This document shows positions 3,481 to 48,243 of a stretch of 48,243 bases of DNA, one piece after another. The position numbers and the translations under genes were made by a program. The stretch comes from a phage. Positions within the stretch are counted from its first letter, which is position 1. Each line of letters opens with the position of its first letter. The notes under the pieces were generated by a model, which worked only from the letters and a program-made list of their open reading frames with translations, made no database searches and had not been told where the DNA came from. The stretch lies in sequence record PZ150741.1. The stretch is one strand, 5' to 3'.

Positions 3481-3512
3481 ATCCCGGCCCTGACCCAGCC
3501 GGGATTTTTTTT
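3481..3512 (+). terminator. rho-independent terminator after lysis cassette
   Basis: Hairpin ATCCCGGC-CCTGACCCA-GCCGGGAT followed by T8 run. Confidence 0.8.
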
Positions 3513-3534
3513 ATCTATTTTCTGTAATGAATAG

Positions 3535-3563
3535 TTGACTATTACTCTGACCCCAATTATATT
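3535..3563 (+). promoter_or_regulatory. sigma70-like promoter (TTGACT-17 bp-TATATT)
   Basis: Immediately downstream of terminator; followed by AACGAGAACGGAG leader and ATG at 3598. Confidence 0.55.
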
Positions 3564-3597
3564 TACTTCATCGACAACGAGAACGGAGTAGAGAGAA

Positions 3598-4201: not shown

Positions 4202-4368
4202 AAAAGTTAATTGCAGATGTTGAACTCGGTGATGTTATTCGTATTGATGACGACTACGGCGGCTACGACGTAGTGGTGAAGCACATCGAGTGGGATTCTA
4301 CGTTGCCATTTGTCACGATTAACCGTGAAATAATGTTCACTAAAACTGATTGGGTAGAGGTTCGATAA
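4198..4368 (+). CDS. hypothetical small protein (56 aa)
   Basis: ATG at 4198 after GGGGAGAG; below track cutoff. Confidence 0.4.
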   Translation: MKKLIADVELGDVIRIDDDYGGYDVVVKHIEWDSTLPFVTINREIMFTKTDWVEVR

Positions 4369-4541
4369 TGACTAACAACGAATACGAGAAACTTAGCGTA
4401 GAAGCGGCGACCGGTGAATCTGAAATAGCGTGGATTGACGCCAACATCGAGCACTACCTACGGCAAGTAGACATCCTTATGGAACGCCGCCGTGAACTGA
4501 TTAACCGCTTCAACCTGAACAAAGGTGACGCCAATGCCTAA
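4368..4541 (+). CDS. hypothetical protein (57 aa)
   Basis: Track ORF 4350-4541; ATG at 4368 overlaps upstream TAA. Confidence 0.45.
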   Translation: MTNNEYEKLSVEAATGESEIAWIDANIEHYLRQVDILMERRRELINRFNLNKGDANA

Positions 4542-4719
4542 AATCACAATTGCATCACTAGAGCGCCGTATTCTGGTGCTCGAGTCAGAGAAACAGACGT
4601 TAGGCGGTCAACTGTCGATTAACGGCGAGTTTCAACTGGAGGCGTTTAAGATGCTACTTGAACGCATGAAGGACGAGGAAGATTGGGCGCATTCCTTGCA
4701 AGACCTCTGGCAATACTAA
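4534..4719 (+). CDS. hypothetical coiled-coil protein (61 aa)
   Basis: Track ORF 4525-4719; ATG at 4534 after AAAGGTGA. Confidence 0.45.
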   Translation: MPKITIASLERRILVLESEKQTLGGQLSINGEFQLEAFKMLLERMKDEEDWAHSLQDLWQY

Positions 4720-5609: not shown

Positions 5610-5630
5610 GCCCTCTACGGAGGGTTTTCT
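5610..5630 (+). terminator. weak terminator-like hairpin at early/late boundary
   Basis: CCCTC-TACG-GAGGG followed by TTTTCT. Confidence 0.35.
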
Positions 5631-5724
5631 GTACATCCCGCCCAATCCCCTTATATAATCCCTTTAGACGCGTAGGGCGCGTCTGGTGCGCTCTGATGGT
5701 CAGACGCATATGCAAGGGGATTCT

Positions 5725-6270: not shown

Positions 6271-7517
6271 GTATTCAGCTATCCGCACCACAGGCTTTGT
6301 TTCTGAACTGCGATAACAAATACAAAGCCTACGTCGGCGGCTTCGGCAGCGGCAAGACATTTGTTGGCTGCCTTGACCTGCTTACGTTCATGCTCAAACA
6401 TCCCGGTACGCGCCTCGGATACTTTGGCCCTACATATCCGGCTATCCGTGACATCTTCTACCCGACATTCGAGGAAGCGGCTAACCTGCTTGGCCTTGAT
6501 GTGCTGGTTAAATCCGGCGACAAAGAAGTCGTGGTTACTCGCGGTAAGACGGTGCTCGGGACAGTTATCTGCCGTTCTATGGATAACCCGGGGTCTATCG
6601 TTGGTTTCAAAATCGCTGCTGCAGTCGTCGACGAGTTGGACGTACTGAGCCGCGAGAAGGCCGAACTGGCGTGGAACAAAATCGTAGCCCGTATGCGACT
6701 TGTTATTCCTGGCGTAATTAACCACATCTCCGTCACCACGACACCGGAAGGGTTCAAGTTCGTCTTCGCCAAGTTCAAAGATAACCCGACGCCGAGCTAC
6801 TCAATGGTGCAGGCATCAACTCACGAGAACGCGCGATTCCTGCCGTCTGACTACATTAGCTCGCTGACCGAGACTTACCCGGCGCAACTGATTAACGCGT
6901 ACCTGAATGGTGAGTTCGTCAACCTGACCTCCGGCAGCGTCTACTACGCCTACGACCGCCGTAAGCACCGCAGCAAAGAGACAATTCAACCTGGCGACAC
7001 GCTGTACATCGGGCAGGACTTCAACGTTACGAAGAACGCCAGCGCCGTTTATGTGCAGCGTAAAGACGGCTGGCACGCGGTAGCAGAGCTGAAAGGTCTG
7101 TTCGATACGCCGGATACTGTGCGCGTAATTACTGAGAAGTGGAAGTCACATGGGCACCGCATCGTCGTTTACCCTGACGCCAGCGGCAAGAACCGCAAGA
7201 CCAACTCGGCATCAATCTCTGATATCGCGTTACTCCAGCAGGCCGGGTTCGATGTTCGCGCTAAATCTGCCAACCCCCCGGTTAAAGACCGTGTTTTAGC
7301 CGTGAATACCGCACTGGAAAAAGGTAAGCTGTGGGTTAACGACCACTTATGCCCCGAGATAGCGAAGACGCTGGAGCAGCAGGCGTACGACGATAACGGC
7401 GAGCCGGCTAAAGACGGCGTTATTGACCATATGGCGGATGCTCTAGGCTATCCTGTAGTTTACGAGATGCCGGTGGTTAAACCAGTAATCAATACCCCAG
7501 TTCGTTTCGCACTTTAA
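6267..7517 (+). CDS. terL: terminase large subunit
   Basis: Walker A GGFGSGKT, Walker B VVDELD, acidic nuclease-domain residues in C-terminal half; 416 aa. Confidence 0.9.
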   Translation: MSIQLSAPQALFLNCDNKYKAYVGGFGSGKTFVGCLDLLTFMLKHPGTRLGYFGPTYPAIRDIFYPTFEEAANLLGLDVLVKSGDKEVVVTRGKTVLGTVICRSMDNPGSIVGFKIAAAVVDELDVLSREKAELAWNKIVARMRLVIPGVINHISVTTTPEGFKFVFAKFKDNPTPSYSMVQASTHENARFLPSDYISSLTETYPAQLINAYLNGEFVNLTSGSVYYAYDRRKHRSKETIQPGDTLYIGQDFNVTKNASAVYVQRKDGWHAVAELKGLFDTPDTVRVITEKWKSHGHRIVVYPDASGKNRKTNSASISDIALLQQAGFDVRAKSANPPVKDRVLAVNTALEKGKLWVNDHLCPEIAKTLEQQAYDDNGEPAKDGVIDHMADALGYPVVYEMPVVKPVINTPVRFAL

Positions 7518-10586: not shown

Positions 10587-10614
10587 AAAAGGCCCCTTTC
10601 GGGGCCTTAGTTTT
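10587..10614. terminator. bidirectional terminator AAGGCCCC-TTTC-GGGGCCTT
   Basis: 8-bp GC stem flanked by A-run and T-run; lies between convergent genes. Confidence 0.8.
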
Positions 10615-10837
10615 AAACTTCCACGTCTATCACCAAATCACCAGGCATGGTTATGACTATTTTATCGTTTTCATAGAACGGGCTAAGAGGCTCATTTTCA
10701 GACTGCAAACGTAAAGTTAGCTTTTTACCACCAAAATAATCTATGTAACGAACCCAGTACCACTCATCGAATACCTGTACCTTTTCTCCCGGGAGTACAT
10801 CTCTAGCTTTCTTTTGGTTCATAAATCTAATCGGCAT
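10613..10837 (-). CDS. hypothetical protein (74 aa), reverse-oriented accessory gene
   Basis: Track ORF with GGAGG SD; own promoter upstream and terminator downstream. Confidence 0.55.
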   Translation of the reverse strand: MPIRFMNQKKARDVLPGEKVQVFDEWYWVRYIDYFGGKKLTLRLQSENEPLSPFYENDKIVITMPGDLVIDVEV

Positions 10838-10863
10838 AAATACCTCCTGTTTAAGTTGGCTGA

Positions 10864-10892
10864 ATAGTACCCTATTATGTTGGGGTGCGCAA
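10864..10892 (-). promoter_or_regulatory. sigma70-like promoter (TTGCGC-17 bp-TACTAT) for 10613-10837
   Basis: Reverse complement reads TTGCGCACCCCAACATAATAGGGTACTAT; near-identical to promoters at 19711 and 42572. Confidence 0.65.
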
Positions 10893-10958
10893 ACTATTTA
10901 TTTACCCATTCCAGTTATTACACCAAAGTGTAAATGATGGAATAAACTATTCGAATAG

Positions 10959-10987
10959 TTGACTTTTCACTAAAAATGTGCTAAGCT
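10959..10987 (+). promoter_or_regulatory. possible promoter (TTGACT-17 bp-TAAGCT)
   Basis: Good -35, weaker -10; at the head of a 316-bp non-coding stretch. Confidence 0.3.
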
Positions 10988-11211: not shown

Positions 11212-11601
11212 ATGGATCTTAAAGCAACTGTCGTAGCAGGAGCATGTTTCATCATCCTGGCTTACGCACACGGCATCTATCAATACCGAAGCGGCTGGAA
11301 CGAAGGCCGGGCGAATCTCGTTTCGCAGCAACAGCAGGAAGCACAAGCTGAGTTAGCGAAGAAAACACAACGGCAGCAGCAGGACGAATCAAAGGCCGCA
11401 GCCGCTGACAACGAAGGCAAGACGAAATCAGAGGTGATTACCCGTGAAGTCGTTAAGTACATTAAAACGCCTGGCCGCAGCGTGTGCACTTTCGATGATG
11501 CTCGTGTCCTGCTCAAGTCCCGCGCCGTCGCAAACGCCAATTCCATCCCCGGATATGACGATGATGCAGCCACCGTGCAAACTGGCGCCGCCAAGCAGTG
11601 A
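11212..11601 (+). CDS. i-spanin (Rz-like)
   Basis: N-terminal TM segment, Gln/Ala/Lys-rich coiled-coil region, and an embedded out-of-frame lipoprotein ORF. Confidence 0.6.
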   Translation: MDLKATVVAGACFIILAYAHGIYQYRSGWNEGRANLVSQQQQEAQAELAKKTQRQQQDESKAAAADNEGKTKSEVITREVVKYIKTPGRSVCTFDDARVLLKSRAVANANSIPGYDDDAATVQTGAAKQ

Positions 11602-29872: not shown

Positions 29873-31293
29873 TTCTTACCTCGTCTCTTCATGTAATTAA
29901 GCAACTCTTCCTGTACCGATTTCTTCTCGTCTGTACGCGCGGCGACAACCTCGTCCAGCGTGTCTTTAGCCACGATGTGGTAGAGAAACACCGGGCGCTC
30001 GTGGCCCGCCTGTTTCTGGCGAACGGGGCCGATGCGCTCAACGACCTGCAAATAGTGCTCAAGGTTCCAGCCTTGCGAGATAAACGCCAGATGATGGCCG
30101 CCGTCCTGTAAATTCAAACCATGACCGGCTGACGCAGGGTGAACGCACAAAATCTCGATTTCACCACGGTTCCACGCTTCCATCTGCTTATTACCCTTAG
30201 CGCCTTTGGCAAACGCCTGCGCCTGTGGGAATCGCTTAAGGATGCGCTCAAGTTCGTGCTTGAACTGATAGGCCACCAGTAACGGTGCACCCTGTAGCTC
30301 CTCAACAATCGACTCCAGCGCATCCAGTTTCGTGTCGTGAACTTTCTCCCAGTCTTTGGTCGCTTCTCCGTCTGGCCCTGACACATACACGGCACCGGAC
30401 GCAATCTGCAGGCACTTCGACGTCTTCGCCGCAGCGTTAGCCGCTTCGACTTCCCCGCTCTCCAGTTCCGCGAATAACTTCTCCTCCATATCGATGTACG
30501 CCTGACGCGCTTTCTTCGGCAGGTCGATTTCAACCGGCACAATAATCGGCGCTTCGCAACCGAACCACTCTGCGGCGTCAATCGTAAGACTAATGTCCTT
30601 CATCTTCTGGTGAATTTCATTATCTGCGCCTGGGCGTGCATGATATTCACGCGCCATAGCTGACTTACCTTTCTGGACAGAGTTAAACCAGCGGTCGGTG
30701 AATGCCGTATATGAAGAACCGAGGCGCTCGCCTGCGTCAATAAACCAGTTCTGACCCCACAGGTCTTTGAGGCCGTTTGGTGATGGTGTGCCTGTCAGGT
30801 TAATGAACCGCTTAACCTTTCCGAACGCCACTTTGCTGAGCGCCTTAGCCCGCTTGCTACCCCCTGAACGGCTACGGAATGATTTTAGCTTCGTACTCTC
30901 GTCGGCGACGATAACCGTAAAAGGCCAGTCGTCTTTGCCGTAGTAGTCAATCAGCCACTCGATAACTTCGTAGTTAGTGCACACCACGTTAGCGTCTGAC
31001 TCCAGCGCCGCAATACGGCGTTTCTCCGAACCCGTTGCATCGACGACACGCAGGCACGGGAAACCCCACTTAGTTTGTTCTGCAGGCCACGTACCGGACG
31101 CAACACGTAACGGGGCGAGGATTAACACGCGGTCCTCTTCCGTAAGCTGACCGTTGCGGAACAGGCGGTTTAATGTCCACAGTACGCTGCCAGTCTTCCC
31201 GGCACCCATGCTCGCCCATATGTTGCAGCGATGGTGTTGCAACATGAACGAAGTCATGAGCTTCTGATATTCGCGCCTTTGAAACTTACCCAT
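29869..31293 (-). CDS. SNF2/DEAD-like superfamily 2 helicase
   Basis: Walker A MGAGKTGS, DExx box VADEST, C-terminal HPASAGHGLNLQ helicase motif VI-like. Confidence 0.8.
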   Translation of the reverse strand: MGKFQRREYQKLMTSFMLQHHRCNIWASMGAGKTGSVLWTLNRLFRNGQLTEEDRVLILAPLRVASGTWPAEQTKWGFPCLRVVDATGSEKRRIAALESDANVVCTNYEVIEWLIDYYGKDDWPFTVIVADESTKLKSFRSRSGGSKRAKALSKVAFGKVKRFINLTGTPSPNGLKDLWGQNWFIDAGERLGSSYTAFTDRWFNSVQKGKSAMAREYHARPGADNEIHQKMKDISLTIDAAEWFGCEAPIIVPVEIDLPKKARQAYIDMEEKLFAELESGEVEAANAAAKTSKCLQIASGAVYVSGPDGEATKDWEKVHDTKLDALESIVEELQGAPLLVAYQFKHELERILKRFPQAQAFAKGAKGNKQMEAWNRGEIEILCVHPASAGHGLNLQDGGHHLAFISQGWNLEHYLQVVERIGPVRQKQAGHERPVFLYHIVAKDTLDEVVAARTDEKKSVQEELLNYMKRRGKK

Positions 31294-32203
31294 TTACCAC
31301 CCCCATGAACGCCTTTATAAATTCAGCGGCTACTTGCGGGACGATGGCATTGCCGTAACCGCGCAATCGTCCCACTCTGGCGGGTATCCCATTAGCCAGC
31401 GGGAATGTGCCGGGTTCAACTGGCCGGAATTTCCCATCCCGGCAGCCGAGCCAGTCAGCATCTGACCAGAAGCCGTGATACGAATTGGTTGCGTTATCGC
31501 CGCCGCTTGTGCCACGTCTTGAGGTCCACCCTTCCTCTGAATCTCTGATAGCGCCCCCTCTAGTGTTCTCACGTTCTTTTCCCCGTCCGCACTGCGAGGA
31601 GTAGGCCAATTCGCTTTCCACACTTCCCGCCCCAACAGGCTGTTGGTAGGCACATTCAGGCATTCCTTCCCGTCTTTGTGGTCGCGCGTTGTTGGCGTCG
31701 GCCAATTCGTGCGCACCAAAGAAGAGTCGTTCTCTTTTGTGCGGAGCGCCGACGCTACAAGCTGGGAGTACGGCAAACCCGACGGCGTAGTCTTCTCCTT
31801 CCAGGTGAGCTTGTAAATCGCACATCCACGATTTTGCAATTGCTGGTGCAACCTGTTCCCCAAAGAGGACTGGAGGGCGGCACTCGCTGATGAGGTCGAG
31901 GAAAACTGGCGCGAGGTGTCTCGGGTCGAACTGCCCGAGTTGTTTTCCCGCCGCGCTAAACGGTTGGCAAGGCGGGCTTCCCGTCCAGAGAGGCGTATCT
32001 TCCGAAACTCCCGCAAGTCTGAGCGCGAGAGGCCAGCCGCCGATACCAGCGAAAAAATGACACTGGGTGAATCCGTCAAGGTCTTCTGGTCTAATTTCGG
32101 TAATGCTTCTTTCATCTACAACTCCAAAAGGTATATGACCCTGTTTTATTAGTTCGCGCAGCCACGCGGCTGCGCCTTTATCCCATTCGTTGTAATAGTT
32201 CAT
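31286..32203 (-). CDS. DNA (cytosine-5)-methyltransferase, compact
   Basis: Motif I FFAGIGGW, motif IV PPCQPFSAAG, ENV-like FGEQV, motif X YGNAIVPQVA. Confidence 0.75.
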   Translation of the reverse strand: MNYYNEWDKGAAAWLRELIKQGHIPFGVVDERSITEIRPEDLDGFTQCHFFAGIGGWPLALRLAGVSEDTPLWTGSPPCQPFSAAGKQLGQFDPRHLAPVFLDLISECRPPVLFGEQVAPAIAKSWMCDLQAHLEGEDYAVGFAVLPACSVGAPHKRERLFFGAHELADANNARPQRREGMPECAYQQPVGAGSVESELAYSSQCGRGKERENTRGGAIRDSEEGWTSRRGTSGGDNATNSYHGFWSDADWLGCRDGKFRPVEPGTFPLANGIPARVGRLRGYGNAIVPQVAAEFIKAFMGVVNG

Positions 32204-32729: not shown

Positions 32730-33014
32730 TTAACTATAATAGTTAGCTATTATGTCGTCAACCTGTTTAAACGAACCAACGACAAAAACATTCGCGCCAC
32801 GTTTACGCATCCGCTCATGTTCACGTAACTGGTGCGGGTCTGGCTTCGTGTTTTCATCTTTCTTAACCTCGACAAACCAGACGATGCCGTCGGGGAGGAT
32901 TACCAGCAGGTCGGGAGCGCCGGAGCGCCCCTCGTAGGAGAGTTTGCGAACGAGGCCCCCCAGGGCCTCGAATCGCTCTTTTGCGTATTTCTGTATTTTG
33001 CCTTCCGGGGTCAT
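32730..33014 (-). CDS. VRR-NUC domain nuclease (PD-(D/E)XK)
   Basis: Track ORF 32730-33029; motif PDLLVILPDG...FVEVKK; start probably ATG 33014. Confidence 0.6.
   Translation of the reverse strand: MTPEGKIQKYAKERFEALGGLVRKLSYEGRSGAPDLLVILPDGIVWFVEVKKDENTKPDPHQLREHERMRKRGANVFVVGSFKQVDDIIANYYS
32733..32761 (-). promoter_or_regulatory. sigma70-like promoter (TTGACG-17 bp-TATAGT)
   Basis: Reverse complement TTGACGACATAATAGCTAACTATTATAGT; member of leftward early promoter family. Confidence 0.65.
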
Positions 33015-36523: not shown

Positions 36524-36552
36524 ACTATAATAGCTTACTATTCAGGTGTCAA
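36524..36552 (-). promoter_or_regulatory. sigma70 consensus promoter (TTGACA-17 bp-TATAGT)
   Basis: Reverse complement TTGACACCTGAATAGTAAGCTATTATAGT; palindrome CCGGGCAGTTCCCGG in the leader. Confidence 0.7.
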
Positions 36553-38621: not shown

Positions 38622-39083
38622 TTATTCTTCTTCGAAATACTTGTTCTTGATTGCCGTCAGGCGTTCCAGGTATTCAGCCAGGTCTTCATCTTTAATCGCA
38701 GCAATCTTCATCTTCTTACCGGTGAACTCTTCCAGCAGCTCGTCAGAATCATCACACGCGGCATCGCTCGGACCTTCATTAATCGCATCGTCGATAGCCT
38801 GAATCTGGTCGCGCAGAGACTGGTAATCTACTTCTTCTTTCTCTTCTTCCGGCTCTGGTGTAGGTTCCTCTACTTTAGCTTTACGCGGCTTGCGTTTTGG
38901 CTTCTCTTCTTCTGCTGGTTTAGTGTCAACTATGTCTTCACCTTCGGCCGGGATTTCTTTCGTTGCAACAGTAGGCTCGATTGTTGCAGTTTCCGCAACG
39001 ACAACCTGTTTTGCACTGTTCGCGGCAATCAGTTCATGTGCAACTACGAAACGTTCCAGTAACACCAAGAATTTCTCTAACAT
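38622..39083 (-). CDS. highly acidic Glu/Asp-rich protein, first gene of a leftward early operon
   Basis: 153 aa with roughly 45 Asp+Glu versus about 20 Lys+Arg; immediately downstream of consensus promoter. Confidence 0.55.
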   Translation of the reverse strand: MLEKFLVLLERFVVAHELIAANSAKQVVVAETATIEPTVATKEIPAEGEDIVDTKPAEEEKPKRKPRKAKVEEPTPEPEEEKEEVDYQSLRDQIQAIDDAINEGPSDAACDDSDELLEEFTGKKMKIAAIKDEDLAEYLERLTAIKNKYFEEE

Positions 39084-39114: not shown

Positions 39115-39143
39115 ACTATAATAGCGAACTATTCACATGTCAA
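39115..39143 (-). promoter_or_regulatory. sigma70 consensus promoter (TTGACA-17 bp-TATAGT)
   Basis: Reverse complement TTGACATGTGAATAGTTCGCTATTATAGT. Confidence 0.7.
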
Positions 39144-39165
39144 TGGGCTTTTCTAAAATAATTAA

Positions 39166-39176
39166 TATGGTACTAT
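39166..39176 (+). promoter_or_regulatory. possible extended -10 promoter (TGGTACTAT) for HTH gene
   Basis: TG-n-TACTAT about 30 nt upstream of ATG 39208; no clear -35. Confidence 0.3.
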
Positions 39177-39207
39177 TCACATATCAACTGACTAAGGAGT
39201 AACTGAC

Positions 39208-39423
39208 ATGCAACCATCTGAACTAGGCATCCGTGTAGAACAACGCCGCAAAGAACTCGGCATCTCCCAGCGCCGTCTGGCGGTCCTGGCCGGGGTTTCC
39301 CAGGGCGCAATTAACCAACTTGCACTTGGAGTAACTCAGGACGTCCGCCCGGCGACGCTGTTTAAACTGGCGGAAGTTCTGCAAGTAGACGCTAAGTGGC
39401 TGGCGTTCGGTGAAGGGGCTTAA
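39208..39423 (+). CDS. XRE/Cro-type HTH transcriptional regulator
   Basis: LGISQRRLAVLAGVSQGAINQL HTH signature; AAGGAG SD. Confidence 0.7.
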   Translation: MQPSELGIRVEQRRKELGISQRRLAVLAGVSQGAINQLALGVTQDVRPATLFKLAEVLQVDAKWLAFGEGA

Positions 39424-39440
39424 CGCCCCTTTCTTTTTAC

Positions 39441-41681
39441 CTATTCCAAATCTTCCTCTGTAACTATCAGCATTTCATTCGGTTCGTATATTGTCTTCGG
39501 TCTTAATCTGTCACCCATCTTTTCCGGTATCCGGTATGTACCGGGAATAACCTCGCCGTTAACATCACACCCTAGCATCAACTCACCGTCCTTCAGCATC
39601 TTCTCAAGATGGTGGTTGGTTATGGCGTGGTCGCCGGAGTTCGCTACTATCTGCCGTTGGGTAAAACCTCGTCCGGTGTCGTCGGACTGTTGCAGGTCTT
39701 CCAGCGCGGCGAGTATTGATTCCTTACGCCCTTCATCCTTCCCACGTTTTACGGCATTCTTTACGTTTTCCTTACCTTCCTTTGTCAGCCCTTCTTCGCG
39801 CTCTTTCTCCTCGTCAGTTTTGAACGGCTCGAAACCCCACGGCATCAACACAAGCGCCTTGTGCGGCTCAGGCAGGTCCAGGTTTACGATTGTGCCGTAC
39901 TCCTCGGTGCTACCCAGGAACTCAACCGCACGGTACTCTTTTGGCGGCGGGGCTTCACGGAACTGTACGGACTCCAGAACCATACCGACAGTTTTCTGTT
40001 GAGGCCCGTGCTTAAATTTCGAGTGGTATACGTTTATCTGACGGTCGGTTGCACGTTCGATTGTCAGTTCCACGTCGACGCCCGCATACAGCGCCCCACT
40101 GCCACGGGCTTTCTTTCCGCCTTTCGGCGTATGGTGAACAACGCCCACCGCGGCTTTAGTCGCATCGCGTACTTCTTTCAGGATGGCGATAACTTTACCC
40201 ATGCCGATTGCCGTCGATGAACTGTTCTCGTCGAACTTATCAATTGTCAGGGCCAGCGTCTGGTTAAGGGTGTCGAACGCGACCATTCCGATAGGTTCAT
40301 CCCCGGCAGTTTCGCGCATGAGCTTAATCAGGCTTTTCAGTTTGCCGACTTCGCCCATATCGATGACATGTACATAATCTTTACCTTCCGCGCCATATTT
40401 AGCCGCGAGTGCATCGATACGTGTACGTGTGGCTGCACCACCCTCACCATCGATATAGAAATGGTGACAACGCTGGGTATCCGCCCCCGCAAACCGGTAA
40501 CCAGCGGCGCTGAGATACATCATACCCAGCGTATAGAACGATTTGTACGTGCCAGATTCCCCGACGATATCCCAGATACAATCCGACGGCATGTACCCTT
40601 CGACGACGAAATCAGCCTTTACCGGTTCCGGTAATTCGTCCTCCTCTGAGTCCTCGTCGTCTTCCAGGTCGTCCAGGCTGCATGAGACGGATTCACGCGC
40701 ACCCCAACCGATGGCCTCTGCCACTTCACTGAATGGCAGCCCGGTCGCATCGCACGCGTACTTCCACACCTCTTTCGGCGACATGCCTTCGGTTGCCGTA
40801 ATGTCGGTGTCGTGAATCATGGTTACGTTCGGAGCTTCATATCCCTCGCGCGGGAAGCACAGCAGGAAGTCGTCCGGGCGCGGTGTCGGGTCGCTGTAGT
40901 TTTCTGCGTGTTCTGGCGTAGCTGGCATTTTCAGTCCGCGGGGTGTCATGACACCGCCGTACTCGAACGCCAGTGCTTCGAACGCATCCGTAAACGCGGT
41001 GCGCAGTTCTTCCGGTATCTGGTAATCCGATGCGCTGCTAACGTCAACGGCGGGGATGCCTTCCAGTAACTCGTCCGGGTCAATCAGGTCGTTGCGGCGC
41101 GACCAGATAACCTGAGAGCCAACCGGCGGCAGGTACATCGGCTGCGACAGAGTAAAACCGCTGCGGTCGGCGCCCATGCCTTTGAAGAAGTGTTCCAGCA
41201 GCCCATGACGAACACGGGTGATGTCGCCACCCTCAACCGGACGGCCCAGCGGCATGACGACGCGAAAGCGCGGGGACTCATCGGTATGGGATGCCGTGGT
41301 GTAGAGGCACATAGCCCGGCGGCTGCGCTTAACCAGGCGCACCGCTTCCTGGTACTCTTCCGGTGTTGCGCTGTCGAAGTCCAGATACGCCAGCGACGAT
41401 TTGCTTACAGAAGCGTCGCAGCGGTATAAAAAGCCTTTGCGCGCTTGCTTAAAGTCACCAGTTTCCGGGTCTTTTACGGTGCTGTGTGTAGAGTCACACG
41501 CGGCGGTGATATAGCCGGGCGCAGTCTTAGGGTTAACCCCATCGCGAACGGCATCGAGCGGCTGAATTAACTCTTTCAGGTCGTCCAGTGTTGCCGTGTG
41601 TGTGGTTCTGACGTTTATATCCTTTTTCTCTGCTCTCGCGTTGCGACGTGACCACGAGTAGGATAAAATTGCATCGGACAT
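39441..41681 (-). CDS. primase-helicase (N-terminal primase-like region plus RecA/DnaB-like NTPase)
   Basis: Walker A GESGTYKS and downstream acidic Walker B-like VAFD; 746 aa, large N-terminal domain; placement in replication block. Confidence 0.55.
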   Translation of the reverse strand: MSDAILSYSWSRRNARAEKKDINVRTTHTATLDDLKELIQPLDAVRDGVNPKTAPGYITAACDSTHSTVKDPETGDFKQARKGFLYRCDASVSKSSLAYLDFDSATPEEYQEAVRLVKRSRRAMCLYTTASHTDESPRFRVVMPLGRPVEGGDITRVRHGLLEHFFKGMGADRSGFTLSQPMYLPPVGSQVIWSRRNDLIDPDELLEGIPAVDVSSASDYQIPEELRTAFTDAFEALAFEYGGVMTPRGLKMPATPEHAENYSDPTPRPDDFLLCFPREGYEAPNVTMIHDTDITATEGMSPKEVWKYACDATGLPFSEVAEAIGWGARESVSCSLDDLEDDEDSEEDELPEPVKADFVVEGYMPSDCIWDIVGESGTYKSFYTLGMMYLSAAGYRFAGADTQRCHHFYIDGEGGAATRTRIDALAAKYGAEGKDYVHVIDMGEVGKLKSLIKLMRETAGDEPIGMVAFDTLNQTLALTIDKFDENSSSTAIGMGKVIAILKEVRDATKAAVGVVHHTPKGGKKARGSGALYAGVDVELTIERATDRQINVYHSKFKHGPQQKTVGMVLESVQFREAPPPKEYRAVEFLGSTEEYGTIVNLDLPEPHKALVLMPWGFEPFKTDEEKEREEGLTKEGKENVKNAVKRGKDEGRKESILAALEDLQQSDDTGRGFTQRQIVANSGDHAITNHHLEKMLKDGELMLGCDVNGEVIPGTYRIPEKMGDRLRPKTIYEPNEMLIVTEEDLE

Positions 41682-41739: not shown

Positions 41740-41973
41740 TTATTCCAGGTCTTCTAAAGTAGCGGTCATTCCGCGAACTTCGGCAACGGCGCTATATTTC
41801 CCGCCAACGTTTTTCACGACACCGGATTTAACCAGAACACGTAACGACCCTTCAATAATGGCGGAACTATAGTACTTAAAATAACTACGGCGCAAGTCGA
41901 TAACACTGCACGACCCTTTTTTACGTGTTAACGAAACGACTGCTGTGAATACTCGTGACTGGAACTCGGTCAT
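41740..41973 (-). CDS. hypothetical protein (77 aa)
   Basis: Track ORF; ATGA-coupled to upstream HTH gene. Confidence 0.45.
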   Translation of the reverse strand: MTEFQSRVFTAVVSLTRKKGSCSVIDLRRSYFKYYSSAIIEGSLRVLVKSGVVKNVGGKYSAVAEVRGMTATLEDLE

Positions 41974-42140
41974 TTCACGTTCTCCTTAATCCACGCTTCC
42001 ACTTTCTCCGGGTCGAACGTACCTGGCTGCCGGCGGCCCATAATGCGAATACAACAATCCGGGAACTTTCCACTCTTTAACCAGTTATTCAGCGTGCGAC
42101 GGGTAACCCCGATACGCTCAGCTACCTCATTCTGCGTCAT
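41970..42140 (-). CDS. AlpA/excisionase-like HTH DNA-binding protein (56 aa)
   Basis: MTQNEVAERIGVTRRTLNNWLKSGKFP resembles AlpA-family HTH; first gene after leftward promoter; below track cutoff. Confidence 0.55.
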   Translation of the reverse strand: MTQNEVAERIGVTRRTLNNWLKSGKFPDCCIRIMGRRQPGTFDPEKVEAWIKENVK

Positions 42141-42172
42141 TCTCAAACCCTCATCATCAGTTAACGAAACAA

Positions 42173-42201
42173 AGTATACATTGCGAATAATGGGAAATCA
42201 A
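42173..42201 (-). promoter_or_regulatory. sigma70-like promoter (TTGATT-17 bp-TATACT) for leftward operon
   Basis: Reverse complement gives TTGATT, 17-bp spacer, TATACT about 30 nt upstream of ATG 42140. Confidence 0.5.
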
Positions 42202-42475
42202 ACATAATCGCACCTATTGACATTATGAAAATCTTCGTTTAAGGTGCTTCTATATCTTAGTTACTTTGATTCCTGTTCACCTTGTAAATCCGCTTAAACC
42301 GTGCGTTAAGCAAAGGGTTAAGCGCAAGTTTACTGAACATGAGAATTATTGTAACTTTCCTTCCTAAGTATCTCAGGTTGCCCTGGGCGAGCTATATTCT
42401 CATCGGCAGCATATCTCTTAAGTATCTGATTTTCTTAAAGTGCCGTAGATTCGCAACCGTAAAAATGTAACCCTT

Positions 42476-42506
42476 ACCGGGCAGGCTTAAGGCCTGCCCT
42501 TTAGTT
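42476..42506 (+). terminator. terminator hairpin GGGCAGGC-TTAAG-GCCTGCCC plus TTTAGTT inside control region
   Basis: 8-bp perfect stem plus T-rich tail; no annotated upstream + strand gene. Confidence 0.5.
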
Positions 42507-42571
42507 ACCAAGTAATAAGAATAAAGGCACAACCTTCCCTAAAGAATCACAACGGCAACGTAACTATTCTC

Positions 42572-42600
42572 TTGCACACCCCAACATAATAGGATACTAT
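42572..42600 (+). promoter_or_regulatory. sigma70-like promoter (TTGCAC-17 bp-TACTAT)
   Basis: TTGCACACCCCAACATAATAGGATACTAT; followed by AACGAGACAGAGGAG leader and ATG 42635. Confidence 0.65.
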
Positions 42601-42634
42601 TCACTTATCGAAACGAGACAGAGGAGTGAGGGTT

Positions 42635-43530: not shown

Positions 43531-43611
43531 TTTTTGTTCTATTTCACGAAACGCAACAATTGAAGCTACTATTGCAGGAGATGCAACAATACAAACACCA
43601 ATAAAATTTAC

Positions 43612-43640
43612 TTGCACACTAAGATAGAATATGCTACTAT
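43612..43640 (+). promoter_or_regulatory. sigma70-like promoter, copy of 36-64
   Basis: Duplicate within repeat. Confidence 0.6.
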
Positions 43641-43670
43641 TCATTTACACAAACGAGAGGAGAGGCAGAT

Positions 43671-43820
43671 ATGGTTACTTTGATGGTTATGGAGTTCGAA
43701 AACAGCACCGCAACTTACCGCGAGATGACTATGGCGCAGGCGTATCACCTGGCCTCAAACGGCAACTTCTACAAGGCCCAAATCATCAACGAGTTCGGGG
43801 TAATTGACTATGAATTTTAA
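43671..43820 (+). CDS. hypothetical small protein (copy of 95-244)
   Basis: Duplicate within repeat. Confidence 0.45.
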   Translation: MVTLMVMEFENSTATYREMTMAQAYHLASNGNFYKAQIINEFGVIDYEF

Positions 43821-44082
43821 CAGTTACACCGTTACCGTTGATTTTGAGGGGCTGGAGCTGCCCCTCCCTAACAACTACCGGTATATCTCACGCGACTGTA
43901 ACGGGTTTATTCAGGGGTGGCGGAACAAACCGACAGATACTGAGTTCGGGATGTCTGGCGGGGAAGAGTTGCCGATCACTTTCGGACATCAGAGTAGCAA
44001 CGAAGAACTTAAAACCGTGATTCGTAAGTATCGCCGCCGCGGTAACACCGGACTTATAGCAATAACAGGCGCGGTTGAATAA
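43810..44082 (+). CDS. hypothetical protein (copy of 234-506)
   Basis: Duplicate within repeat. Confidence 0.5.
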   Translation: MNFNSYTVTVDFEGLELPLPNNYRYISRDCNGFIQGWRNKPTDTEFGMSGGEELPITFGHQSSNEELKTVIRKYRRRGNTGLIAITGAVE

Positions 44083-44101
44083 ACGAGAGGAGAGACAGAA
44101 G

Positions 44102-44320
44102 ATGTTCCTGGAATGCAAATCCTATGAAGGCTATTGGGCGCTGACCAAAAACGACCTGTACCACCTCAAAGAAGACGGCGACGAGAGCCGCTGCTACATA
44201 ATAGACGACAATGGCACTGAACTTGATGTCTATTACACCGGGTATGGTCGATGGGCGTTATTGGCGGACGATGACTTTGTGTTCGAAGAATATAACGGAG
44301 AGGAGCCAGAAGATGAGTAA
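44102..44320 (+). CDS. hypothetical protein (copy of 526-744)
   Basis: Duplicate within repeat. Confidence 0.5.
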   Translation: MFLECKSYEGYWALTKNDLYHLKEDGDESRCYIIDDNGTELDVYYTGYGRWALLADDDFVFEEYNGEEPEDE

Positions 44321-44915
44321 CAAAAACGAAGTATTAGAATACCTGATTGACCAGCTACGGCAGCAGCTACCGGTAGTAGATGTAATGGGTGAAATAAAAC
44401 GGTGGAGCATAGACCGTAGTATTGCTGGCCGAGGTAACTATACCGAAGAGGAAAACGCCGTAATCGATGCTTACATCGGCCTGGAGCACAACCCATACAA
44501 GCAACAGTGCGAAGACCTGGCACATGAGGTGCAGTCACTCAAGAATCAGTTACGCGACGCTTCGGCGCTGGTGGCTGAGTTACAGAGCGACAACATTAAG
44601 AAATCTGAGCACATATCGCACCTGTCGGAACTGGTGGACGAGTTGATGGGGACTATAACGTTAATGAACGGGGACGTTGAGGCTTACAAAGTTCTACGCA
44701 AAGGTGGGTACGTGCCTGAGCAATCCGGTTGCCGTAAGGACGATACCCAGGAATGCGAGCATGAGTGGCGATGTGTGGTAGTTTTTGGGAATAGACTTGG
44801 GACCCCGTATTGCCGTAAATGTGGTGCGGCTAAACCTGAAGAATGCAAGCACGAATGGCAATTTTACGGAGTCGGGTTTCCTTGTATGTGCCTTAAATGC
44901 GGGTTAAAGAAATGA
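44314..44915 (+). CDS. zinc-ribbon-like protein (copy of 738-1339)
   Basis: Duplicate within repeat. Confidence 0.5.
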
Positions 44916-45115
44916 CCAGCATCCTTTTTATCTGGGTACTGTCTGCAGGTCAGATGCATCTGGCGGCATCAGAAACGTTTTACTCGATGGAGGCGTGCCG
45001 GTCAGCGGCACGCGCCGCAGAGAACGCACACTTCCTGTTTCAGGGCGACAAGCCCAACGATTCAGAGGTACGCGCTATCTGCTCACCTAAGCGACTTGGT
45101 AAACAGGAGAAGTGA
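44912..45115 (+). CDS. hypothetical small protein (copy of 1336-1539)
   Basis: Duplicate within repeat. Confidence 0.4.
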   Translation: MTSILFIWVLSAGQMHLAASETFYSMEACRSAARAAENAHFLFQGDKPNDSEVRAICSPKRLGKQEK

Positions 45116-45117
45116 TT

Positions 45118-45366
45118 ATGGTTAAATTATACGCAGAGCGCGATTTAGAAATGCTCGACATGACTAACAATTACTATTCAAGACATGTGATGGCTATGAC
45201 GGAGGAAGGATTGAACAGTAAATCATCTATCGCTGCTGAGTTGGCGTACCGTGACTGGATTATTGATGAACAGCAAAAAGAGTTACAGAAATACAAAGAC
45301 CAGTTCCCGGATTACGTCGAGTGCGCGAACTGTGGGTTGGTCACACATGTGGAAGGGGTAGAGTGA
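45118..45366 (+). CDS. hypothetical protein (copy of 1542-1790)
   Basis: Duplicate within repeat. Confidence 0.45.
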   Translation: MVKLYAERDLEMLDMTNNYYSRHVMAMTEEGLNSKSSIAAELAYRDWIIDEQQKELQKYKDQFPDYVECANCGLVTHVEGVE

Positions 45367-45368
45367 TT

Positions 45369-45587
45369 ATGATATTCAGAGACCGTAGCAGCTTAAGAAC
45401 ACCGGATTGTCCTACGTTCGAGTTCGAAGACAAAGACGGAGATGTATGCTGTATTCAATTTTATAGAGACGATGAAGGTGAGTGCGGGCTTGTAGAGTTG
45501 CAGGTTTACAGTGAAACCGGTTGTGTTGTATTAAGTGCAGATGATGCGGAATCACTAGCTCGTAAGATACTTGAGGGCGTTAAATGA
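45369..45587 (+). CDS. hypothetical protein (copy of 1793-2011)
   Basis: Duplicate within repeat. Confidence 0.45.
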   Translation: MIFRDRSSLRTPDCPTFEFEDKDGDVCCIQFYRDDEGECGLVELQVYSETGCVVLSADDAESLARKILEGVK

Positions 45588-45877
45588 GCCTCGCAACTGA
45601 CATCCTGAAACGAAGCGGCCTTGCGCCGCTGTCACCGAGAGCGAACACCCAAATATACAAGCGCCGCCGTAATGCGCTGTACCCCGAGATTCAGGCCAGA
45701 CGCAAAGCTATCCGCGCCTGTGGATTCCAGAACGGGAAGGCCGTGAATCTCGGTGAGTTTAAAACACAGGAACGCGCAGCAATCGCTAACCGGTTATTTA
45801 ATTACTGGAAATCGCTGGGGTACGATGATATTCCGACGAAACCACAGAGACGACAATACATCTGGAGACACAAATAA
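45584..45877 (+). CDS. hypothetical basic protein (copy of 2008-2301)
   Basis: Duplicate within repeat. Confidence 0.45.
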   Translation: MSLATDILKRSGLAPLSPRANTQIYKRRRNALYPEIQARRKAIRACGFQNGKAVNLGEFKTQERAAIANRLFNYWKSLGYDDIPTKPQRRQYIWRHK

Positions 45878-45952
45878 ACAACTATTAGGATAATTCCTAC
45901 CCGTGGTATCCTCCAGTTACTGCATACTTAATACGCACCTGGAGGATTCATC

Positions 45953-46261
45953 TTGGATAAATTTACTGAAACAGTGACAGGCTGGCTTCTAGCTGCCGCG
46001 CTCGCCGGAGGGGTAATCGGACTACGACAACATAAGTCCGTTATTTCTGGCCCCACCGACGGCTTCTGCTTTATTGCTACTGGCTTCACTTGCGCCGTAT
46101 TTGGTGCACCTCTTGCCGCTCAATGGTTCGGAATCACGGGCGACCGTGAAATCGCCGGGTTGGGCTTCATTATCGCTGTTCTCTGGATGCCTATCTATTC
46201 CCGTCTATCCAGTATCGTAGCCGGGGAATACATCGCACGTCGAGGAGGCACAGATGAATGA
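45953..46261 (+). CDS. holin-like membrane protein (copy of 2377-2685)
   Basis: Duplicate within repeat. Confidence 0.45.
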   Translation: MDKFTETVTGWLLAAALAGGVIGLRQHKSVISGPTDGFCFIATGFTCAVFGAPLAAQWFGITGDREIAGLGFIIAVLWMPIYSRLSSIVAGEYIARRGGTDE

Positions 46262-46526
46262 GTTATTCTGGTTCGGCGGTATGCTGGCAATCGGGGGCAC
46301 ATCGCTGTTTAATGTGTACCACCCCAGCGTGGACGATGGGTTATTTGGTAGGGTGCTCTATATCCTGACAGCTATCGTCTGCGCCGCCGGATGTATCCAC
46401 TTGCTACAGGGCAGCATGTCCCCGACGCTGCCTGAGACGTTAATCACATTAGTTGCGCTGCGCCAGATTCGCCAGGCGTGGTTGTCATACGGAGGACATA
46501 AGCGTGTCTCGAAATATTTCAGATAA
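46254..46526 (+). CDS. holin/antiholin-like membrane protein (copy of 2678-2950)
   Basis: Duplicate within repeat. Confidence 0.45.
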   Translation: MNELFWFGGMLAIGGTSLFNVYHPSVDDGLFGRVLYILTAIVCAAGCIHLLQGSMSPTLPETLITLVALRQIRQAWLSYGGHKRVSKYFR

Positions 46527-46990
46527 TGGGTTGCATTTTACCGCTGCGTTCGAGGGATTCCGGAACTGCGTATCGTGCTACGCCGAACGAGAAGTACCTG
46601 ACTATAGGCTATGGAAGCTACGGTCCGCATGTTAAGGCGGGGCAAACCATCACGCCTGGTCAGGGCTTACTATTACTTAATCGCGATATGGCTAAAGCCG
46701 TAGTTGCGGTTGATGCGGCGGCGCACCACTCATTGACACAGGCGCAGTTCGATGCAGTGTGCGACCTGGTGTATAACGCGGGTGCCGGAGTGATTGCGGC
46801 TACTACTGGCACAGGTAAGGCACTGCGTTCTGGCGATATTGCGACACTGCGGGCTAAGCTGGCGCTGTTCATCAACCAGAACGGCAAACCGTTACTTGGC
46901 TTACGTCGTCGCGTAGCTGGTCGCCTGGCGCTGTTCGACGGTAAACCGTGGCAGGAGGCGGAGGCTATTGGACGTGCGGTGAAAGGTTGA
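46504..46990 (+). pseudogene. endolysin copy disrupted by 2-bp deletion (frameshift)
   Basis: Relative to 2928-3416, CGCG becomes CG at 46561; reading frame breaks after FEGFR; track splits it into 46453-46635 and 46526-46990. Confidence 0.8.
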
Positions 46991-47054
46991 CACATAAGAC
47001 TAATCCGACGATACTTAAATCACCTCCTGCTCCATCCCTCTGCTCTCCAGTTTT

Positions 47055-47085
47055 ATCCCGGCCCTGACCCAGCCGGGATTTTTTT
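47055..47085 (+). terminator. terminator copy with T7 instead of T8
   Basis: Same hairpin as 3481-3512, one T shorter. Confidence 0.8.
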
Positions 47086-47107
47086 ATCTATTTTCTGTAA
47101 TGAATAG

Positions 47108-47136
47108 TTGACTATTACTCTGACCCCAATTATATT
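47108..47136 (+). promoter_or_regulatory. sigma70-like promoter, copy of 3535-3563
   Basis: Duplicate within repeat. Confidence 0.55.
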
Positions 47137-47170
47137 TACTTCATCGACAACGAGAACGGAGTAGAGAGAA

Positions 47171-47419
47171 ATGGGCAACGTATCGACGATAGAAATAACC
47201 GAAGAACTCGAAGATAAATGCATCGCATGGACTATGGATAATGACCCGGTTGCTATGTGTAAATTTCCAATGAAAATCACAGATACCGAAGCATTCAAAG
47301 ACGCACAACTGATGGCACGCATCGCCGTTAGTAACCTGAGCAATAGCATTCCAGCGGACGCGTTCTGGTTCGCCGCAATGCAGACACTGAAAGCAGCTTA
47401 TGCAGGAGAGAAGAAATGA
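47171..47419 (+). CDS. hypothetical protein (copy of 3598-3846)
   Basis: Duplicate within repeat. Confidence 0.5.
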   Translation: MGNVSTIEITEELEDKCIAWTMDNDPVAMCKFPMKITDTEAFKDAQLMARIAVSNLSNSIPADAFWFAAMQTLKAAYAGEKK

Positions 47420-47619
47420 ACAACGTCACCGTTGGCGGCATTTATAAGAGTCGTCACTCTTGGAATGAGGGTGCAAGATTCATTGTAACCGCGGTTGGGT
47501 TGGACCACGTGCTTATCGCGGACCACCCATTGATAAAATTCAATGAATCCTATTTGGAATATTGTGTTGGTAGAAAGGAGTTCGAGACTAAATTTAAGTT
47601 TGCAGGAGAGAAGAAATGA
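47416..47619 (+). CDS. hypothetical protein (copy of 3843-4046)
   Basis: Duplicate within repeat. Confidence 0.5.
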   Translation: MNNVTVGGIYKSRHSWNEGARFIVTAVGLDHVLIADHPLIKFNESYLEYCVGRKEFETKFKFAGEKK

Positions 47620-47774
47620 GTGAACAAGGTCAAGTAAGCCAGCCACTACGAGTAGGCCGTAAAGTCAGTCGCACCCCGTTCCCGACACGCGAGGAACTGA
47701 TGAAACGTAACAGTTTCCCGGGGCCGGACAAGAACAAGTATCTCAATCGTATGTGGGGAGAGCGTAAAGAATGA
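47616..47774 (+). CDS. hypothetical small protein (copy of 4043-4201)
   Basis: Duplicate within repeat. Confidence 0.4.
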   Translation: MSEQGQVSQPLRVGRKVSRTPFPTREELMKRNSFPGPDKNKYLNRMWGERKE

Positions 47775-47941
47775 AAAAGTTAATTGCAGATGTTGAACTC
47801 GGTGATGTTATTCGTATTGATGACGACTACGGCGGCTACGACGTAGTGGTGAAGCACATCGAGTGGGATTCTACGTTGCCATTTGTCACGATTAACCGTG
47901 AAATAATGTTCACTAAAACTGATTGGGTAGAGGTTCGATAA
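47771..47941 (+). CDS. hypothetical small protein (copy of 4198-4368)
   Basis: Duplicate within repeat. Confidence 0.4.
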   Translation: MKKLIADVELGDVIRIDDDYGGYDVVVKHIEWDSTLPFVTINREIMFTKTDWVEVR

Positions 47942-48114
47942 TGACTAACAACGAATACGAGAAACTTAGCGTAGAAGCGGCGACCGGTGAATCTGAAATA
48001 GCGTGGATTGACGCCAACATCGAGCACTACCTACGGCAAGTAGACATCCTTATGGAACGCCGCCGTGAACTGATTAACCGCTTCAACCTGAACAAAGGTG
48101 ACGCCAATGCCTAA
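47941..48114 (+). CDS. hypothetical protein (copy of 4368-4541)
   Basis: Duplicate within repeat. Confidence 0.45.
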   Translation: MTNNEYEKLSVEAATGESEIAWIDANIEHYLRQVDILMERRRELINRFNLNKGDANA

Positions 48115-48243
48115 AATCACAATTGCATCACTAGAGCGCCGTATTCTGGTGCTCGAGTCAGAGAAACAGACGTTAGGCGGTCAACTGTCGATTAACGGCG
48201 AGTTTCAACTGGAGGCGTTTAAGATGCTACTTGAACGCATGAA
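48107..48243 (+). CDS. hypothetical protein, 3'-truncated by window end (copy of 4534-4719)
   Basis: Duplicate within repeat; ORF runs off the window. Confidence 0.4.
   Translation, partial: MPKITIASLERRILVLESEKQTLGGQLSINGEFQLEAFKMLLERM

Follow-up and report, generated by a model that had tools for sequence, protein, structure and literature searches.

A lone 434-Cro-type protein as the candidate repressor of palindrome-bearing promoters in a lytic phage of the genus Kagunavirus

The Cro protein of phage 434 (2cro, 3cro, 1zug) is a single five-helix helix-turn-helix (HTH) domain of 71 amino acids (aa), and it works with a cI partner in a PRM/PR switch that includes a three-site OR. Proteins with this type of domain bind, as dimers, dyad-symmetric operators of about 14-18 bp. 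For the 434 repressor, the contact residues Gln28, Gln29 and Gln33 and the half-site ACAAG are established structural knowledge. Here we describe a gene for a 434 Cro homologue of the XRE family in a stretch of phage DNA of 48,243 nucleotides (nt) (sequence record PZ150741.1), referred to below as the window, whose numbering is used for all coordinates. Many Kagunavirus phages of Escherichia (subfamily Guernseyvirinae) share 91-93% DNA identity with this region. We propose, with a probability of about 0.6, that the XRE protein would be an autoregulated repressor of 434-Cro type acting genome-wide on early and middle promoters through the palindrome AATAG-N4-CTATT.

The initial annotation of this stretch had placed a 71-aa XRE-type HTH protein on the + strand, in a feature starting at 39166, and the gene call was borne out by an open reading frame (ORF) at 39208-39423 with a well-placed ribosome-binding site (RBS), by its match to the Pfam family HTH_3 and by its conservation, position 39166 itself falling upstream of the ORF in the would-be promoter or 5' untranslated region (UTR). 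The 5' UTR of the gene is predicted to be unstructured. The HTH_3 match (PF01381; residues 11-65, E 1.2e-12) scored 48.1 bits, the gathering threshold being 23; HTH_31 and HTH_19 were likewise above threshold, and the PHROGs matches of the protein were transcriptional repressor and regulator families. The best sequence match in the PDB was phage 434 Cro, aligned end to end (E 4.9e-7, residues 6-68 on 4-64), followed by the 434 repressor (E 1.2e-5), P22 c2 and HipB-type domains. An AlphaFold2 (AF2) model, of moderate confidence owing to its single-sequence input (pLDDT 84), contained five helices (5-17, 21-28, 32-39, 48-57 and 62-66) in a globular five-helix fold whose HTH consists of helices 2 and 3, and its top Foldseek match in the PDB was 2cro (TM 0.72-0.78, 40% identity).

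When the protein was compared by tblastn with a phage collection, 568 records gave an XRE match; identities of 93-100% were found in Kagunavirus, about 51% in Jerseyvirus and about 40% in Cornellvirus, and the matches that came next were Cro and repressor genes of temperate phages. The nearest of these homologues outside the subfamily was the cro gene that stands beside cI in Klebsiella phage RCIP0098 (45% identity), where the cI-cro spacer holds two perfect 434-type operators of 14 bp, ACAA-N6-TTGT. GenBank labels for the gene vary between 'transcriptional repressor', 'Cro', 'XRE family regulator' and 'DicA'. Among 35 distinct alleles from IMG/VR Kagunavirus contigs, which encode 14 protein variants, the variable sites at the first, second and third codon positions numbered 12, 2 and 51, of 71 each, and the ORF is a real gene under strong purifying selection. 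Neither the scanned non-structural ORFs nor the annotations of relatives yielded an integrase or a two-domain repressor of CI type, and publications on close relatives describe lytic phages with no lysogeny genes reported, so that the absence of an integrase and of a CI-like partner, as noted in the initial annotation, was upheld. Judged from its sequence, the 71-aa protein is a genuine, conserved regulator of 434-Cro type in a lytic phage.

The HTH gene and the divergent gene of an acidic 153-aa protein are separated by a control region of 124 bp that contains two copies of the 14-bp palindrome AATAG-N4-CTATT, here called O1 and O2 (Table 1). O1 lies within the leftward promoter P_L, which, as judged from its consensus match, is predicted to drive the genes for the acidic, NinX-like and exonuclease proteins, and O2 lies over the probable promoter of the HTH gene itself. 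In 37 of 37 Kagunavirus loci O1 was found at -88/-89 and O2 at -44 from the ATG. The arms of O1 were invariant in these loci, its centre taking six sequences (CGAA, CTAA, TGAA, CAAA, CGAG and CTAG), and O2 varied at a single position, the 'n' of a TGn motif. Upstream of the ATG, 14 of 60 positions were variable versus 51 of the 71 third-codon positions in the gene; that is, the control region is far more conserved than the synonymous sites of the adjacent gene, despite the mosaic 5' end of the leftward gene.

The palindrome extends well beyond this locus. Because the first 4670 bases of the window reappear at its end (43577-48243), we took the window as an end-overlapping assembly of a unit genome of about 43.6 kb. 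In these 43.6 kb AATAG-N4-CTATT, with its 5-bp arms and 4-bp centre, was the most frequent gapped palindrome and occurred in 7 perfect copies; with up to one mismatch there were 25 matches versus 2.8 expected, a number that no shuffle attained. Every good copy overlapped a sigma70-type promoter, in three registers relative to the -35 and -10 hexamers and in both orientations. In class A (39120, 36529 and 32738; leftward replication operons) TTGAC(A/G) is followed after 4 nt by the palindrome, from whose last T the -10 hexamer TATAGT begins; in class B (42588, 43628 with its duplicate at 52, 10863 and 19710) the arrangement is TTGCRC-N10-palindrome, with the -10 hexamer TACTAT inside the right arm; and in class C (3530 and, weakly, 10954) the -35 hexamer TTGACT lies within the palindrome. 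The palindrome was present at five of the seven strongest sigma70-like promoter matches; those without it include the promoter that precedes the terminase and structural genes and has its -10 at 5654-5659. The weaker promoter candidate of the helicase operon (42201-42173, 9/12) had no copy either. At the class A site upstream of the genes for the single-stranded DNA-binding protein (SSB) and DNA polymerase, the half-sites were invariant bar one exception in the 37-locus set, and the central 4 bp were variable. Since its symmetry is preserved while its place with respect to -35 and -10 shifts, the palindrome resembles a repressor site rather than a sigma70 contact, and its invariant arms around a drifting centre are likewise the signature of a dimer site and not of sigma70 contacts. 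A search for palindromic operators shared with other promoters, a check that the initial annotation had suggested, was thus productive, with O1 over P_L, O2 over the -10 of the HTH gene and about eight sites elsewhere.

Two candidates were found for the promoter of the HTH gene, an extended -10, TGgTACTAT, which has almost no -35, and TTCACA-16-TAAAAT, which came from a consensus scan. The former was preferred because the whole stretch from O2 to the RBS aligns base for base with the class B promoters (42572-42600, 43628, 10863 and 19710), because the single mismatch of O2 yields the TGn before TACTAT that makes an extended -10, because the palindrome is conserved, and because the TACTAT-to-RBS spacing of 16-17 nt is retained in Jerseyvirus and Cornellvirus. 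Both stay candidates, and TGgTACTAT is the probable one.

Table 1. Coordinates of the HTH gene, its control region, palindrome copies and neighbouring genes in the window
Feature	Position	Strand	Basis or remark
71-aa XRE/HTH_3 protein, 434 Cro homologue; five-helix single domain, no C-terminal domain	39208..39423	+	ATG-started ORF, Pfam, 434 Cro match, AF2/Foldseek
RBS AAGGAG, 8 nt ahead of ATG	39194..39199	+	Read from sequence; invariant in 37 related loci
O1, perfect operator-like palindrome AATAGCGAACTATT	39120..39133		In P_L spacer; overlaps the -10 by one base (last of O1, first of the hexamer)
O2, operator-like palindrome AATATGGTACTATT, one mismatch	39164..39177		Over -10 of the HTH gene's own promoter
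Leftward promoter P_L, TTGACA-17-TATAGT	39143-39115	-	11/12 consensus positions; present in Jerseyvirus and Cornellvirus
Probable HTH promoter, extended -10 TGgTACTAT, poor -35, class B register	39168..39176	+	Alignment with class B promoters
Alternative HTH promoter candidate, TTCACA-16-TAAAAT (-10 39154-39159)	39132..39159	+	Consensus scan 10/12; poorly conserved in Jerseyvirus SE2
Palindrome in TTGACA-17-TATAGT upstream of SSB/DNA polymerase genes, class A	36529..36542		In nearly all loci whose flank reaches there
Palindrome in leftward promoter TTGACG-17-TATAGT, class A	32738..32751		Motif and promoter match
Palindrome over -10 of rightward TTGCAC-17-TACTAT (42572-42600), run of small rightward genes, class B	42588..42601
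One-mismatch palindrome AATATGCTACTATT over -10 of rightward TTGCAC-17-TACTAT with TGn	43628..43641		Copy at 52-65 by assembly overlap
Perfect palindrome over -10 of leftward class B promoter, small gene 10613-10837	10863..10876
Perfect palindrome over -10 of leftward class B promoter of superinfection-immunity-like and exonuclease genes	19710..19723
Perfect palindrome containing -35 of rightward TTGACT-17-TATATT, downstream of lysozyme gene, class C	3530..3543		Copy at 47103-47116
Weak copy AATAGTTGACTTTT, one mismatch, containing -35 of rightward promoter candidate, class C	10954..10967
Acidic 153-aa protein, phrog_3127, first gene of P_L operon	38622..39083	-	Begins 124 bp left of HTH ORF
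Intrinsic terminator of HTH transcript, 8-bp GC stem, UUUCUUUUU tail	39412..39440	+	Hairpin 39412-39432, stop codon in loop
Helicase-primase gene, AAA_25 domain	39441..41681	-	Ends 17 bp past HTH stop; annotated helicase-primase in relatives
58-aa HTH_17/excisionase-like protein, first gene of helicase operon	41970..42146	-	Rival binder candidate

The same components were found in the other two genera compared. The XRE protein is present in Kagunavirus, Jerseyvirus and Cornellvirus, and it was the only recognisable sequence-specific regulator common to all three. Jerseyvirus SE2 carries the same core palindrome at seven positionally equivalent promoters, among them P_L and, with a weaker copy that covers the -10, the promoter of its HTH gene (TTGCGT-17-TACTAT). 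In Cornellvirus SP-031 the AATAG-N4-CTATT palindrome was not found, and a motif A(A/T)TAC-N4-CTAAT stands at P_L and three further promoters, its 4 sites comparing with 0.1 expected and with 0 in the other two genomes. The divergent layout with two sites, one at P_L and one at the HTH -10, therefore recurs in Jerseyvirus and, with an altered motif, in Cornellvirus. The motif tracks the phage lineage and not the host, since Jerseyvirus and Cornellvirus both grow on Salmonella and their motifs differ, which makes a phage factor a likelier binder than a host factor. A host transcription factor site was rejected on the same ground and because the consensus sequences of CRP, Fur, Cra and TrpR do not fit.

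Variants that share only 77-86% identity with the query overall have exactly its HTH and recognition helix (LSQRRLA..GVSQGAINQLALG), and the only such variant whose locus was examined has the same operators. In a broad protein search for distant homologues with the same helix, only Kagunavirus-type proteins of at least 77% identity were found; a 40% match in IMG/VR was rejected as an independent test of the helix, as it belongs to an unrelated high-GC temperate phage. The recognition helix still has residues matching Gln28 and Gln33 of the 434 repressor and has lost the one matching Gln29. The half-site AATAG shares positions 1, 4 and 5 with ACAAG of 434, and the two diverge at positions 2-3. 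This parallel between helix and half-site fits the XRE protein as the binder, although it is suggestive only.

From these data we propose the following course of events. The sigma70 RNA polymerase of the host would transcribe the HTH gene from the weak TGgTACTAT promoter, and the transcript would end at the gene's own intrinsic terminator. A dimer of the XRE protein would then bind the 14-bp palindrome, and its binding at O1 would block P_L and hence the operon of the acidic protein and exonuclease genes, whereas occupancy of O2, which covers the gene's own -10, would bring about negative autoregulation at higher concentration. The same palindrome would expose the -35, the spacer or the -10 of about eight more promoters, those of replication genes, small rightward genes and leftward accessory genes, to the protein, while the palindrome-free promoters of the helicase operon and of the terminase and structural genes would stay outside its reach. 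The XRE protein may in this way turn down early and middle promoters during lytic growth, which would be the lytic half of the role of lambda and 434 Cro, played without a CI partner. More tentatively, and at somewhat less than even odds, we suggest that throughout the strictly lytic siphophages of the Guernseyvirinae a lone, orphan Cro-type protein and one 14-bp operator, set in three registers at about ten promoters including the gene's own, would run most host-polymerase promoters as a shut-off circuit for early and middle genes from which the helicase-operon and structural promoters escape, a circuit that could be the remnant of a temperate-type immunity region minus CI and in which operator and protein would have co-diverged between genera.

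Published RNA-seq data are available for the Kagunavirus vB_Eco_K1B4, in which gene _004 (3386-3601, +, 216 bp), located between a 471-bp minus-strand gene and the helicase gene, is the XRE homologue and was classed as 'middle'. Just four genes were classed as 'early', gene _008 (6308-6490, -), the HTH_17 homologue, among them. The XRE homologue is therefore transcribed in infection and is not among the earliest-peaking transcripts. Its class is compatible with a weak promoter lacking a -35 and with a later turn-down role, the classes being very coarse.

With regard to the surroundings of the gene, the layout described in the initial annotation, with the HTH gene diverging from the promoter of the acidic-protein operon and converging on the 3' end of the helicase-primase gene, agreed with the position of P_L and with the 17-bp gap between the two convergent genes. 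The HTH gene is monocistronic, with its own predicted promoter and terminator and no upstream gene on the same strand. The terminator stem is conserved in relatives and its loop is variable, and no U-tract was found on the minus strand of the hairpin at 39412-39432. Because the U-tract is on the + strand only, the hairpin should end HTH transcripts and not leftward ones, and a bidirectional terminator between the convergent genes was rejected. For the same reason, transcription of the helicase operon should continue across the HTH gene, in antisense, and into P_L, and the suggestion of the initial annotation that convergent transcription dampens helicase read-through was not supported, the more so as the two genes are co-directional in Cornellvirus. 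In that genus the HTH gene heads a rightward array and is followed by a hairpin and then by the helicase-primase gene, which marks the convergent layout of the window as a lineage-specific rearrangement and not a conserved feature. The Cornellvirus helicase-primase is 33% identical, over the C-terminal half only, which looks like module replacement, and a simple inversion of the helicase module was rejected. Some Kagunaviruses have an extra gene between the HTH and helicase-primase genes. In Cornellvirus SP-031, a strong leftward promoter match (TTGACT-18-TATACT, ~11380-11434, minus strand) was also noticed upstream of the helicase-primase gene, pointing toward the 3' end of the HTH gene; if real, it would give antisense transcription of the HTH gene in Cornellvirus too.

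The acidic 153-aa protein is 74% identical in Jerseyvirus SE2 and 40-44% identical in Cornellvirus, and it matched no family of known function in Pfam or PHROGs (phrog_3127 only). The 5' end of its gene is mosaic among the Kagunavirus loci compared, and the adjoining control region is almost invariant. The HTH_17 protein at the head of the helicase operon, the only other DNA-binding protein recognised here, shares 88% identity with its Jerseyvirus homologue, and Cornellvirus has no equivalent; an activator, an antiterminator and a repressor are the candidates for its role.

Several points weigh against the XRE protein as the repressor that binds the palindrome. A literature search found no experimental work on the XRE gene or on binding by any homologue, and the promoter assignments are consensus matches only. 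The Cornellvirus motif was defined post hoc and rests on 4-5 sites. The recognition helix reads SQGAINQL in Kagunavirus and SQSLITHL in Jerseyvirus, at 51% identity of the whole protein, although both genera have the same core palindrome, and on the comparison of these two genera alone HTH_17 would be no worse a candidate for the binder. The 'middle' class of vB_Eco_K1B4 comprises 42 of 57 genes, and membership in it speaks neither for nor against a turn-down role. A serious rival is that the palindrome is a real operator for another factor, foremost HTH_17 or an unrecognised phage protein, and that the XRE protein has another target. We consider this unlikely, but it is the alternative that deserves most attention, because HTH_17 is 88% identical between the two genera that share the palindrome whereas the XRE protein is 51% identical with a different recognition helix, because the HTH_17 homologue is among the only four genes classed as 'early' by RNA-seq, and because the promoter of HTH_17 itself lacks the palindrome. 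HTH_17 is, however, not found in Cornellvirus, whose homologous promoters keep a related dyad-like motif, and the Cornellvirus ORFs sampled from the early and accessory regions yielded no further HTH. Small winged-helix proteins of the excisionase or AlpA kind, of which HTH_17 with its 58 aa would be one, for the most part recognise direct repeats or serve as activators or antiterminators, and dimeric binding to 14-bp palindromes is not typical of them. The geometry of the palindrome suits a dimer of 434-Cro type instead, and the promoter of the XRE gene itself bears a copy in all three genera.

The palindrome could also be no operator at all, being instead an intrinsic or inherited promoter module, made up of copies from a common ancestor or of overlapping -10-like hexamers on both strands, with the HTH protein regulating something else or little. 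Repeat finding of the PHIRE type indeed returned the motif as a promoter consensus, tgAATAGTa-ccTATTat-T, which was named a phage promoter (PMC9825357); the arms hold the -10-like hexamers TACTAT and TATTAT, and the flanks beyond the palindrome are alike among some sites. Such a module would hardly be expected to occur in either orientation and at three different offsets from -35 and -10, or to keep its arms fixed while its centre drifts, and we regard this explanation as improbable. A promoter for a phage RNA polymerase, as the published name implies, is very unlikely because no RNA polymerase gene was found in the ORFs scanned or in the annotations of relatives, and each site lies within a -35/-10 frame of sigma70 type. 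The 16-bp direct repeat ACTATTCACATRTCAA was likewise rejected as the operator, the conserved unit being AATAG-N4-CTATT and the remainder flanking -35 or transcribed sequence. Two further readings concern the locus itself, and we give very little credence to either. According to one, the HTH protein would be a dedicated regulator of Aca type that tames the strong promoter of an early anti-defence gene, the acidic 153-aa protein being a possible DNA mimic: a small HTH gene does adjoin a near-consensus promoter whose first gene encodes a highly acidic protein, and the 5' end of that gene is mosaic, as is often seen in counter-defence genes. But the HTH gene is divergent and monocistronic, lying neither in the acidic-protein operon nor downstream of it, the operator stands at about ten promoters, replication genes included, the acidic protein matches no known family, and the closest homologues of the HTH protein are Cro proteins and repressors of lambdoid phages. 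According to the other, transcriptional interference between the HTH unit and the helicase operon would be the main role of the locus and the protein secondary. The 17 bp between the ends of the two genes and the + strand-only terminator, with the antisense transcription that it should allow, point that way; the co-directional genes of Cornellvirus, the extra gene that separates the pair in some Kagunaviruses, and the strong purifying selection on the protein with its invariant recognition helix all argue the opposite. Repression by the XRE protein through the palindrome thus remains our preferred explanation.

Some further features of the genome were recorded along the way. The overlap of 1-4670 with 43577-48243 was read as that of a circularly permuted genome. 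Its two copies differ by a CG indel at 2985-2986, within the Phage_lysozyme ORF, which spans 2877-3416 in one copy and 46526-46990 in the other, and in the T run of a terminator tail at 3505 (T8 versus T7); these differences reflect either heterogeneity within the population or sequencing error. An ORF of 305 aa (31286-32203, minus strand) that encodes a C-5 cytosine DNA methylase domain lies within the leftward replication operon and is probably an orphan enzyme that shields the phage from restriction. The promoter match TGTACA-18-TATAAT (-10 at 5654-5659), which lacks the palindrome and directly precedes the terminase and structural genes, is immediately followed by the hairpin GACGCG-TAGGG-CGCGTC (5667-5683), a layout also seen in Cornellvirus SP-031 (~19456), and promoter and hairpin (5630-5683) may be a leader element that controls the late operon. 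Between the helicase-operon promoter (42201-42173) and the class B promoter at 42572-42600 there is a gene-poor gap of about 480 bp (42147-42625) with a strong terminator-like hairpin on the + strand (42479-42499), for which Rfam gave nothing; this gap could hold a replication origin or a small RNA. An Rfam scan of the whole window found no known RNA family. The 9-mer AACGGCAAC occurs in 12 copies in the unique genome, mostly on the + strand, and is also among the commonest 9-mers of Jerseyvirus SE2 and Cornellvirus SP-031, as raw counts with no chance expectation; coding bias and a Chi-like signal are the candidate reasons.

Guernseyvirinae are among the phages most often isolated for therapy and biocontrol of E. 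coli and Salmonella, and their 'transcriptional repressor' gene is regularly flagged in safety assessments. If the proposed regulation is true, this gene would be a timing and feedback regulator of the lytic cycle with no lysogeny function, the published 'phage RNA-polymerase promoter' motif would be an operator over host sigma70 promoters, and the phages would offer a compact, portable repressor/operator pair together with a graded set of natural promoters. The conceptual novelty is small because the design is the familiar one of Cro, and the useful new point would be that a published 'phage promoter' repeat is reinterpreted as an operator regulon.

Among known systems with small HTH proteins, the Cro/Aca-like arrangement put forward in the initial annotation was retained in its Cro part, the protein being of Cro type by sequence and fold (434 Cro) and facing a shared divergent control region, and was given up in its Aca part. 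In common with Aca proteins, the XRE protein is small and of HTH type and would control its own synthesis as well as shut down, by way of inverted repeats, a very strong early promoter; in contrast to them, its gene is not downstream of an acr gene, or of any candidate anti-defence gene, in one operon, its operator is spread genome-wide, and no known anti-defence gene is attached. Aca structures were not seen among the PDB sequence matches or, by description, among the top 50 PDB fold matches, no Aca-specific library having been searched. The controller proteins of restriction-modification (R-M) systems, C.AhdI, C.BclI and C.Esp1396I, are similar in size and fold (Foldseek) and in concentration-dependent autoregulation through paired palindromic boxes, but no R-M pair adjoins the HTH gene, the only methylase found (31286-32203) being 7 kb away in another operon. 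An XRE-type antitoxin similar to HipB or HigA would have an adjacent toxin gene transcribed together with it, whereas the HTH gene has no co-directional neighbour and both flanking genes are on the opposite strand. A CI-type repressor differs in having a C-terminal oligomerisation or S24 peptidase domain, for which the HTH, spanning nearly all of the 71 aa, leaves no room, and a lambdoid CI/Cro switch differs in that the divergent neighbour here is the acidic-protein gene, with no CI-type repressor in the scanned ORFs or in relatives. The Cornellvirus homologue at the head of its array, followed by the hairpin and the helicase-primase gene, recalls the lambdoid cro ahead of replication genes, as in RCIP0098; in the window and in Jerseyvirus the helicase module is opposed, and the HTH gene is an isolated single-gene unit in a phage with no lysogeny genes. 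Compared with 434 Cro itself, the differences are that this strictly lytic phage has neither a cI partner nor a PRM/PR switch nor a three-site OR, that two local sites 44 bp apart are joined by about eight dispersed over the genome, and that AATAG is paired with QGAINQ here and ACAA with QQSIQL there. The likeness extends from the protein, with its identical length of 71 aa and its single five-helix HTH domain, to the candidate operator, which as far as its sequence goes is likewise 14 bp long and dyad-symmetric with a non-conserved centre, cf. ACAA-N6-TTGT, and to the way in which the candidate sites, as in 434, overlap divergent promoters and the promoter of the gene itself.

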